A stretch of 64,000 nt of DNA from Escherichia virus TH44. Under the pieces are notes generated by a model that was not told the DNA's origin, did no database searches, and worked only from the letters and a program-made list of their open reading frames with translations. Shown here in pieces: positions 45,510 to 46,623 of this stretch. The position numbers were made by a program, and so were the translations under genes. The stretch lies in sequence record MT446415.1, one strand, 5' to 3'. Position 1 is the stretch's first letter. Each line of letters starts with the position of its first letter.

Positions 45510-45583
45510 GGCCCTGTAGCTCAATTGGTTAGAGCATCCGGCTCATAACTGGCAGGTTTCCGGTTCAAGTCCGGATGGGGCCA
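45510..45583 (+). tRNA. tRNA with CAT anticodon (Met by sequence; likely lysidine-type Ile as in T4)
   Basis: Cloverleaf folded by hand: acceptor GGCCCTG/TGGGGCC, D arm GCTC/GAGC, anticodon loop CTCATAA, T arm TCCGG-TTCAAGT-CCGGA. Confidence 0.8.
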
Positions 45584-45585
45584 CC

Positions 45586-45662
45586 CGGGGTGTAGCTCAA
45601 TTGTATAGAGCAACGGTCTTCTAAACCGTAGGTTGTGGGTTAGAATCCCACCACCCCGACCA
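45586..45662 (+). tRNA. tRNA-Arg (anticodon TCT), CCA encoded
   Basis: Perfect acceptor CGGGGTG/CACCCCG, D arm GCTC/GAGC, anticodon stem ACGGT/ACCGT with loop CTTCTAA, T arm GTGGG/CCCAC, 3' ACCA. Confidence 0.85.
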
Positions 45663-45677
45663 ATTACTGAGGATATT

Positions 45678-45917
45678 ATGGTTATTAGTGAATCATATGC
45701 AGTTATGGATATAACCAGCAACGAGCTGGTTTATAGCTTTGATGAGTTTGACGAAAATGATAAACAAGTCCCATGGTTTGCATTAACTGCTCCACCTGAA
45801 CATAATAAATATCTAAGTTTCCCGACTCGCAGACTAGCAACAAATTTTATGGAATTCAATGACCTTGATTCCAATTATAAGGTTGTTAAAGTCAAATTAG
45901 CTATTACAATTGAATGA
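45678..45917 (+). CDS. Hypothetical protein
   Basis: 79 aa from ATG 45678 (GAGGA RBS) just after tRNA-Arg; ORF-track start lies inside the tRNA. Confidence 0.5.
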   Translation: MVISESYAVMDITSNELVYSFDEFDENDKQVPWFALTAPPEHNKYLSFPTRRLATNFMEFNDLDSNYKVVKVKLAITIE

Positions 45918-46150
45918 GAAACCGGGTCGCTACCGGTAAGTCGTCGGACTGATGTTCCCTGGAGTATAGTTCCTCCCACGGTTTTACTGTGTTCTGGTTC
46001 TTTACTATCACAGCTGAAACGGCGCACCCTTTTAACGGAGTTTTTCCAGAGCGGACGGTGCGTCCGGTAGTACGAGAAATCAGAGCGGGTGGTGCATCCG
46101 GTACTATGGAATATAAATATTAACAACAACCCTAATAATGGAAAAACAAA

Positions 46151-46534
46151 ATGCTTACATATGCAGAATTTTTAAATCGCAATACCATCACTGAATCCGT
46201 ACTGACTGAAGCTGGCAAATTTTCTTTAGTGGCTCCAGAAAAAGCCGGTGTTTCAATTGGTGACCGTGTTATGTTCAAGAAACCAGTTAATGGCGTTTCT
46301 TGGGGTATCGTAACTGGGTTTGGCATCAAAGCTAAAGACGTTAAAAACGCCGCAGCACCTGGTGCTAAACTGGCTGGTTCCAAAGTTTCAACTTATATGG
46401 TTCGCCCTAAACAGTCTCCAGGTAATGGTGCTGCTGACTGGGTTGGTGCTCCAATCGAAATCGCTCGTGATAAATTCTTGAACATCACTGACCGTGCCAA
46501 CGAACGCGCTGCAATGGCATTCGCTCGCGGATAA
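46151..46534 (+). CDS. Hypothetical protein with IP-like N-terminus (MLTYAEFL)
   Basis: 127 aa; Gly/Ala-rich. Confidence 0.6.
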   Translation: MLTYAEFLNRNTITESVLTEAGKFSLVAPEKAGVSIGDRVMFKKPVNGVSWGIVTGFGIKAKDVKNAAAPGAKLAGSKVSTYMVRPKQSPGNGAADWVGAPIEIARDKFLNITDRANERAAMAFARG

Positions 46535-46571
46535 GAACACTTGCCTTGCAGGTGGAACCCCGACAAGGTAT

Positions 46572-46600
46572 AGCCCCTTCCGAAAGGTTGGGGCTTTTTT
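46572..46600 (+). terminator. Rho-independent terminator
   Basis: GCCCC...GAAA...GGGGC stem followed by TTTTTT. Confidence 0.7.
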
Positions 46601-46623
46601 ATAAATCAACTAAAGAGAAACGT

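Follow-up and report, generated by a model that had tools for sequence, protein, structure and literature searches.

Does the structured stretch that follows the tRNA genes of Escherichia virus TH44 correspond to the small stable RNAs of the T4 tRNA cluster, as a first-pass annotation of the sequence suggested? Here, we address this question in a window comprising 64,000 nucleotides of sequence record MT446415.1, in which the non-coding stretch covers 233 nt (45918-46150), and we find that it consists of two different things, namely a homolog of T4 rnaD at 45916-46029 and the leader of a downstream protein gene at 46029-46150. The suggestion holds for the former, which represents the species 2 RNA, and fails for the latter. 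The region is approximately 96-98% identical to the T4-family Escherichia phages ECML-359, pEC-M719-6WT.2, MN01 and DK-13 and 91% identical to the same region of vB_EcoM_VR20 (VR20), the type member of Gaprivervirus. The tRNA-bearing strand of T4 corresponds to the plus strand of the window, on which all features described here are located unless a strand is named. We interpret the region as the distal end of the unit from which a T-even-type coliphage near Gaprivervirus transcribes its tRNAs, with four functional parts: a tRNA pair, the rnaD homolog, a gene cassette, and a leader that would control translation of the cassette gene. Taken jointly, with all of its parts, we regard this reading as on balance probable. 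Most of the locus is ordinary, and the exchange of one of the small stable RNAs, rnaC, for an orphan gene is mildly unusual.

Exactly two tRNA genes were detected by ARAGORN in the 64-kb window, and the two abut (45510-45585 and 45586-45662). Their Rfam RF00005 scores of 62.2 and 73.7 bits lie well above the gathering score of 29, and the cloverleaves that had previously been folded by hand, one with a CAT anticodon and one for Arg-TCT, were thus accepted by both programs. The CAU tRNA is most likely a lysidine-type, AUA-reading tRNA-Ile2, a reading based on its acceptor stem (GGCCCUG/UGGGGCC, with C4-G69 and C5-G68), on the match of its nucleotides 1-15 to the annotated T4 tRNA-Ile with no mismatch, and on a stem that is unlike that of elongator tRNA-Met (E. 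coli metT) and closer to that of E. coli ileX. The pairs C4-G69 and C5-G68 are reportedly determinants for TilS, as described by Ikeuchi and colleagues in 2005, and were taken here as the criterion for an Ile2-type acceptor stem. The second gene encodes tRNA-Arg (UCU), which reads AGA. In the long ORFs of the window, AGA makes up 15% of the Arg codons and AUA 14% of the Ile codons, and E. coli seldom uses either codon; therefore, the usual codon-supplementation reading applies, and the pair would supply decoding of AUA and AGA. The earlier description of the tRNA cluster as minimal is correct, as is the contrast drawn with the eight tRNAs of T4, whose corresponding region also encodes rnaC and rnaD, but such a reduction was already known: the published counts are 2 for RB69, 3 for JS98 and 8 for T4 (PMC2993671, Table 2). 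In a T-even-type phage, both this tRNA pair and an rnaD homolog are to be expected, and the same two-tRNA set has been published for RB69.

Between tRNA-Arg and rnaD lies an ORF of 79 aa (45678-45917) that is annotated in relatives and matches PHROG 33509 (E 4.9e-57), and T2 and RB69 also feature an ORF at the equivalent position. Its TGA stop codon falls inside AATGAGAAACC, the start of rnaD. The ORFs inside the non-coding stretch itself are one of 84 aa on the minus strand, which is annotated by one GenBank relative, and one of 44 aa on the plus strand. Across relatives the longest ATG ORF of the stretch varies from 5 to 72 aa while the sequence is kept as RNA, in agreement with the earlier view that no convincing ORF is present and with conservation at the RNA level.

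A BLAST search of 45915-46150 against phage genomes returned 741 records, most of which cover just the initial 47-52 or 112 nt of the query. In T4, the match coincides with the annotated rnaD (NC_000866, 71053-71171), adjoining rnaC ('species 1') just past tRNA-Arg. Nucleotides 1-52 of the window copy share 96-98% identity with T4 records that carry the rnaD annotation, conservation extends to the final ~23 nt, and identity to T2 reaches 97% over 112 nt. Alignments including T4, T2, RB69 and the congeneric P479 reveal a near-invariant 5' end, GAGAAACCGGGUCGCUACCGGUAAGUCGUCGGACUGA, and a conserved 3' end, AUCACAGCnGAAACGGCGCACC, with the 3' ATCACAGCnGAAACGGCGCACC likewise retained, while the central ~45 nt exist in several unrelated versions, of which the window carries that of T2. 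The single-sequence fold z-scores of rnaD (-0.88) and of the leader (-1.86) are unremarkable, and comparative data were therefore needed. The RNAalifold consensus of nine diverse rnaD copies contains 24 pairs, 8 of them with compensatory changes, and two of these changes come from a copy located among the tRNAs of an unrelated-looking Pseudomonas phage, PsgM04F. In the consensus fold, ACCGG and CCGGU form a hairpin at the 5' end, GUCGUCG pairs with the 3'-terminal CGGCG(C)AC to close the structure, and the variable tip sits on an irregular stem. A covariance model built on this alignment has a single match in the window, at 45916-46029, with 114.5 bits for the window sequence, itself part of the seed, and 116.2 bits for T2 rnaD, which was outside the seed. 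Homology to T4 rnaD, placement past tRNA-Arg and before the shared terminator, and a common secondary structure were all found, and the 114 nt at 45916-46029 can, judging from the alignments, be called a clear homolog of T4 rnaD with a T2-type central domain.

As is the case for T4 rnaD, the RNA would presumably be excised from the tRNA precursor and accumulate as a stable RNA. RNAC and RNAD have been confirmed as late-accumulating RNAs in T4 (PMC9697503), and their roles are stated to be unknown (PMC3014915, PMC9697503). Rfam returned nothing on the plus strand of 45918-46150, either at the gathering threshold or at E <= 10. It also returned nothing for rnaC and rnaD of T4 itself, as neither RNA has an Rfam family; the empty scan of the stretch is thus uninformative, and the absence of both RNAs from Rfam also explains why automated pipelines miss them. 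Some automated annotations place spurious ORFs or odd tRNAs over rnaD or rnaC. The alignment and covariance model from this analysis could be used to seed an rnaD family.

Downstream of rnaD, the window departs from most T-even phages. In phage genomes rnaC is near-invariant: this 139-nt RNA was found in 740 phage records, 681 of which are at least 95% identical to T4. In T4, T2, RB69 and P479, it resides between the 3' end of rnaD and a shared block that begins with AACACTTGCC and ends in the terminator. The corresponding interval in the window is filled by 505 bp (46029-46533) comprising a 122-nt leader and a 127-aa ORF (46151-46534), with breakpoints at the 3' end of rnaD and just 5' of AACACTTGCC. 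P479 shares 99% identity with the flanks of the window, yet has kept rnaC. In JS98, neither rnaC nor the cassette is present and rnaD is joined straight to the shared block (...GGCGCAC|AGAACACTTGCC); the right junction of the window, TAAGAACACTTGCC, looks like an insertion into a JS98-like site. The shared block (46536-46601) comprises a conserved stem-loop and an intrinsic terminator (the terminator proper at 46572-46601) that closes the tRNA and small-RNA unit; it folds with -27.3 kcal/mol (z = -3.0), is followed by a U-run, and is identical after rnaC in T4, T2, RB69 and P479 and directly after rnaD in JS98. The cassette, which this phage shares with about 15 relatives from Gaprivervirus, was found in 15 phage records as well as in many sequencing-run assemblies, and because it adjoins at least three different types of the rnaD central domain, recombination occurs within rnaD. 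Based on these alignments, a 505-bp cassette, made up of a leader and an orphan gene, precisely replaces rnaC in this clade. The segment at 46029-46150 is not a divergent rnaC: it has no alignment with rnaC of T4, T2, RB69 or P479 and lacks a tRNA-like T-arm, and no tRNA-like match was found by Rfam in the non-coding stretch when the cutoff was relaxed to E <= 10. This segment contains both the direct repeat and the CGGACG hairpin, which the first-pass annotation had linked to the T4 small RNAs, and that link is accordingly not supported. A duplication of rnaC or of the rnaD 3' end is similarly unconvincing as a source of the leader, with 12/21 ungapped positions alike, by eye, in the comparison with the rnaD 3' end.

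In 14 records, the 127-aa protein shows 100% identity despite numerous synonymous differences in the DNA, and the ORF is therefore a real gene. No Pfam or PHROG family was found for the protein. It forms one cluster among 5.8 billion proteins and has, in addition, only three remote relatives (38-47% identity), to which a metagenome scan added none. All three are encoded on T4-like contigs (L034, L035 and L036) and two of them adjoin tRNA genes. No linkage between the gene and rnaD is established, as the covariance model finds no rnaD in any of the three contigs. The protein is basic (pI 9.9) and AlphaFold reaches a pLDDT of 36 from the single sequence and of 71 from five sequences, the latter model being a generic SH3/KOW/Tudor-like barrel. 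Structure matches of this model are also generic (Z <= 6.9), and the predicted barrel is common to KOW, Tudor and OapB-type nucleic-acid binders.

The leader (46029-46150) is absent from T4, T2, RB69 and P479 and accompanies the ORF in 15 phage records. The direct repeat reported from the first inspection is real and longer than described, with 26 nt, 85% identity between copies (46047-46072 and 46081-46106) and a spacing of 34 nt, and it is unique in the window: its core occurs in 2 copies against 0.07 expected, a number reached in 0/100 shuffles. Each copy contains a 6-bp stem with a GUG loop. The hairpin noted previously, CGGACG-GUG-CGUCCG, is present at 46052-46066 (arms 46052-46057 and 46061-46066), and a second one, CGGGUG-GUG-CAUCCG, follows at 46086-46100 (arms 46086-46091 and 46095-46100). 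Through the G/C difference between the copies their tails are complementary, with GUAGUAC (46067-46073) pairing with GUACUAU (46101-46107). We compared 16 distinct leader variants, in which positions 46089/46097 of hairpin 2 carry either G.U or A-U and positions 46073/46101 of the tail helix either C-G or U.G, and these wobble changes preserve pairing in plus-strand RNA only. In hairpin 1, G-C replaces A-U at 46055/46063 in 4/8 distinct variants, and the two are never mixed among the 16. This is the single true compensatory pair, and 8/500 shuffles equal the observed score; since variation in the leader is scarce, the covariation is supportive rather than conclusive. The hairpins are not intrinsic terminators, being followed by GUAGUA and GUACUA and not by U-runs, and the terminator scan of them was negative. 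A promoter scan rules them out as sigma-70 promoters, as no sigma-70-like site is present within 46029-46150 and the sole promoter motif there is of the late type. Mobile PeSL regulatory cassettes of T4-type phages reportedly consist of an early promoter and a stem-loop, as described by Arbiol and colleagues in 2010; there is no sigma-70-type early promoter beside the stem-loops of this segment, and we do not count the leader among them.

The late-type motif is TATAAATA at 46112-46119, the T4 late promoter consensus, located 31 nt before the ATG and with a predicted late start near 46125. In the window it occurs 19 times against 5.1 expected (3.7-fold enriched), and each of the three remote homologs has (A/G)ATAAATA 28-34 nt 5' of its ATG. 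The Shine-Dalgarno (SD) GGA of the 127-aa gene (46140-46142) sits 8 nt before the ATG within UGGAAAAAC (46139-46147), of which GUUUUUCCA at 46040-46048 is a perfect 9-nt complement, and the helix of the two is part of the minimum free energy (MFE) fold. Complementarity of 9 nt to the ribosome binding site (RBS) region was reached by 15/5000 dinucleotide shuffles of the upstream part. In read-through RNA, the SD has a predicted probability of 0.023 of being unpaired, the shuffles average 0.60, and 0/300 of them gave so low a value; in RNA starting at 46125, the predicted probability is 0.54. When rnaD remains attached to the leader, the full 270 nt take a different MFE fold. The long-range helix varies just in homopolymer length (U6 in L031; A4 in MN01 and L028), which would introduce an uncompensated bulge.

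These features, TATAAATA near the RBS and a predicted SD-covering helix whose 5' strand lies outside the late transcript, are those of the leaders of T4 gene e and I-TevI, and they suggest how the cassette may be controlled. In T4, the RBS of e, soc, 49 and I-TevI is sequestered in a helix on long early and middle transcripts, and RNA from a late promoter located a short distance 5' of the RBS lacks the 5' strand and is translated (PMC3014915). No convincing terminator was found by the terminator scan between the tRNAs and the 127-aa gene. Read-through transcripts from the tRNA unit would carry GUUUUUCCA, the anti-SD strand, which would pair with UGGAAAAAC and bury the RBS, and the two hairpins together with the helix of their tails would compact the loop of ~90 nt. 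Late transcripts, in turn, would start at TATAAATA within this loop, lack the 5' strand and be translatable; the gene would consequently be expressed only late, like T4 e, soc, 49 and I-TevI. Based on the predicted folds and on the analogy with gene e and I-TevI, we infer that the leader restricts translation to late transcripts.

Three other accounts of the twin repeat deserve consideration. Its 17-20-nt core (CCAGAGCGGRYGGUGCAU) may be an operator, a sequence-specific protein site on RNA or DNA, in which case the most economical candidate binder would be the basic SH3-like protein of the cassette itself, acting by autoregulation; on DNA, the site would act at positions of roughly -44 to -28 relative to the late promoter. 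Such an operator would be compatible with sequestration of the RBS, and the remote homolog on contig L036 speaks for it. Upstream of that homolog (P0005), which is only ~40% identical as a protein, the core (UUCCAGAGCGGGCGGUGCAU) is 19/20 identical to copy 2 and its distance to (T/A)ATAAATA is the same as in the window, although the 14-nt spacer that separates the core from the promoter is not the same. The 3' arm of the hairpin is missing from the L036 leader, which argues that sequence rather than structure was kept. Additionally, the predicted unpaired probability of the SD in L036 is 0.39-0.41 in read-through RNA against 0.24 in late RNA, so that sequestration is supported weakly there, and with the arm missing and occlusion weak, RBS sequestration or RNA structure alone fails to explain the conservation of the core. 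The motif is found nowhere else in the window, including upstream of its other late promoters, and not meaningfully in the databases: in IMG/VR the hairpin or core motif is limited to VR20 besides chance matches in GC-rich contigs, and the combination of core and late promoter gave 0 matches in JGI metagenomes. The high pI of the protein and its predicted small beta-barrel, resembling KOW, Tudor and OapB-type nucleic-acid binders, would also suit a binder. Set against this, the structural match is generic (the Z-scores given above), the motif is known from two lineages only and may reflect shared ancestry with few changes, the homologs on L034 and L035 have no clear copy of the core upstream, and the covariation of hairpin 1 is that of a stem, a property not required of an operator recognised by sequence alone. 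We therefore rate the operator as unlikely, while keeping it in view.

The twin-hairpin segment (about 46029-46110) could alternatively be a small stable RNA that is cut from the tRNA-rnaD precursor and substitutes for rnaC. It occupies the exact slot of rnaC, directly after rnaD, and is compact, with hairpins preserved through compensatory and wobble changes; further, an 8-nt segment of hairpin 1 at 46057-46064 (GGUGCGUC; GGUGCGCC in VR20) is complementary to the 3' end of rnaD, a match seen in 8/5000 shuffles. We nevertheless consider such an RNA distinctly unlikely, given that the segment resembles rnaC neither in sequence nor in structure and has no tRNA-like T-arm or acceptor to recruit RNase P or the CCA-adding enzyme and no Rfam match, that the downstream gene accompanies it in each of the 15+ genomes and also in L036, and that rnaC can simply be absent, as in JS98. 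Finally, the repeat might be a relic without function, left by a tandem duplication or by the recombination event that introduced the cassette, with hairpins and SD helix being coincidental. The very little variation available to test, the SD-covering helix without covariation and the modest single-sequence z-scores would all fit a relic, but they are outweighed by the compensatory change in hairpin 1, by wobble-only changes that fit pairing in plus-strand RNA, by the retention of the core in the leader of the 40%-identical homolog, and by an SD-covering helix and a promoter motif that are each improbable by shuffling, and we judge it highly improbable that the repeat is devoid of function. 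Our preferred reading thus remains a leader that would confine translation of the 127-aa gene to late transcripts.

The interest of the locus lies mainly in the natural material it offers for the old question of the roles of rnaC and rnaD. The former is among the most conserved non-coding sequences of T4-type phages, and its function has been an open question since the 1970s. The window and P479 represent a near-isogenic natural pair, the former with the cassette and the latter with rnaC, and JS98 has neither; such pairs are ready material for probing the contribution of rnaC. A bolder idea, which we hold to be very unlikely, is that the twin repeat serves as operator for an autoregulated late-gene module that is complete in itself, with the basic SH3-like orphan protein binding CCAGAGCGGRYGGUGC on RNA or DNA, and that this module displaced rnaC by taking over its role or by making it redundant. 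If true, the replacement of rnaC function by such a module would provide the first functional handle on the 50-year-old question of the T4 small stable RNAs.

Compared with known systems, the tRNA region most closely recalls that of RB69, which has the same pair (tRNA-Met CAU and tRNA-Arg UCU) followed by an ORF (ORF150c) and rnaD; RB69 differs in retaining rnaC, which the window lacks, and the ORF of the window is shorter (79 aa). With T4 rnaD, the window copy shares the 5' ~48 nt and the 3' ~23 nt, the position past tRNA-Arg and before the operon terminator, the 5' hairpin, and the closing helix of GUCGUCG with the 3' end. It departs from T4 in that its central ~45 nt are of the T2 rather than the T4 type, in that an ORF intervenes after tRNA-Arg, as in T2 and RB69, and in that no rnaC follows. 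The hairpin segment holds the same slot as T4 rnaC (species 1), immediately 3' of rnaD and ahead of the shared terminator block, but has no sequence similarity to it, lacks the GGTTCGAATCC T-arm and is tied to a protein gene, and is thus not a member of that family. With the autogenous operators of T4 (the targets of gp32, gp43 and RegA), the likeness is limited to the idea of a small protein controlling its own mRNA leader, an analogy that bears on the operator account only; the leader in the window has no sequence or structural similarity to these operators, and binding is putative. The leaders of T4 e, soc, 49 and I-TevI are closer, sharing TATAAATA just 5' of the RBS and, by prediction, an SD-covering helix with its 5' strand upstream of the late start. 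The predicted helix of the window differs from theirs in being long-range, closing a loop of ~90 nt with two extra hairpins, and its promoter lies in the loop and not in the 5' strand. Seen against these systems, the exchange of rnaC for an orphan gene with a twin-hairpin leader is a modest variant, albeit an undescribed one.

Sequence comparison of the window with phage relatives (loci L002-L033) revealed that the central part of rnaD, the T4 species 2 small stable RNA, is interchangeable. Its central stretch of approximately 45 nt (45955-46005 in the window) occurs in at least three unrelated versions, namely a T2/window type, a VR20 type and a P479/JS98 type, and the same 505-bp cassette (a leader and a 127-aa orphan gene in the slot of rnaC, T4 species 1) adjoins all three, which indicates recombination within rnaD. 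The rnaD family also extends past the enterobacterial T-even phages, as a clear homolog is present in the 151-kb Pseudomonas phage PsgM04F (OR584014, positions 900-1013 of the extracted locus; 99.6 bits, with this sequence being part of the seed alignment). This copy is flanked by tRNA-Tyr and tRNA-Thr and carries compensatory changes in both the 5' hairpin and the closing helix.

In the window, the segment GGUGCGUC (46057-46064) of hairpin 1 in the cassette leader is complementary to the 3' end of rnaD, GGCGCACC (46021-46028). This could be an alternative fold of the precursor, or a chance match. The 8-bp pairing is stronger than the closing helix of rnaD and was matched in only 8 of 5000 shuffles, and the VR20 counterpart of 46057-46064 reads GGUGCGCC.

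Annotations in some public records obscure these small RNAs. In Enterobacter phage PG7 (Karamvirus; NC_023561, L016 901-1040), an rnaC homolog 79% identical to that of T4 is situated among tRNA genes, with part of it annotated as a 95-nt 'tRNA-Met', and in some other records 'hypothetical protein' coding sequences are placed on top of rnaC and rnaD. An 84-aa open reading frame on the minus strand of the window (45875-46129) overlaps rnaD and the leader, and is entered as a hypothetical protein in the record of pEC-M719-6WT.2 (L002 2175-2429); the frame is not conserved among the relatives and is probably spurious. tRNA-like elements were also present on T4-like contigs carrying remote homologs of the 127-aa protein. 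On one metagenomic contig (L036 2312-2438), a 127-nt element with a long internal insertion lies immediately upstream of tRNA-Arg and matches the Rfam tRNA model over its full length (42.5 bits); it could be either an interrupted tRNA or an rnaC-like RNA. On another (L034 1600-1730), a tRNA-like stretch with the T-arm GTAGGTTCGATCCCTAC, for which ARAGORN made no tRNA call, precedes tRNA-Gly and the 202-aa homolog P0003.

Across the whole window, the late-promoter motif TATAAATA was found at 19 sites (3.7-fold over-representation), 14 of them on the minus strand within the first 30 kb (e.g. 22230 and 29441) and several immediately 3' of a terminator hairpin, a distribution consistent with a late-gene block in that part of the window.

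At least two T-even lineages naturally lack rnaC, since in JS98 (EF469154, L020 895-1110) rnaD, ending in ...GGCGCAC, is joined directly to the common stem-loop and terminator block, starting with AGAACACTTGCC, with no rnaC between them. An additional segment of approximately 11 nt separates the two hairpins of this block in VR20, T2, RB69 and T4. The block (46536-46601 in the window; fold z = -3.0) is nearly identical across T4, T2, RB69, P479, JS98 and the window, regardless of the sequence upstream.
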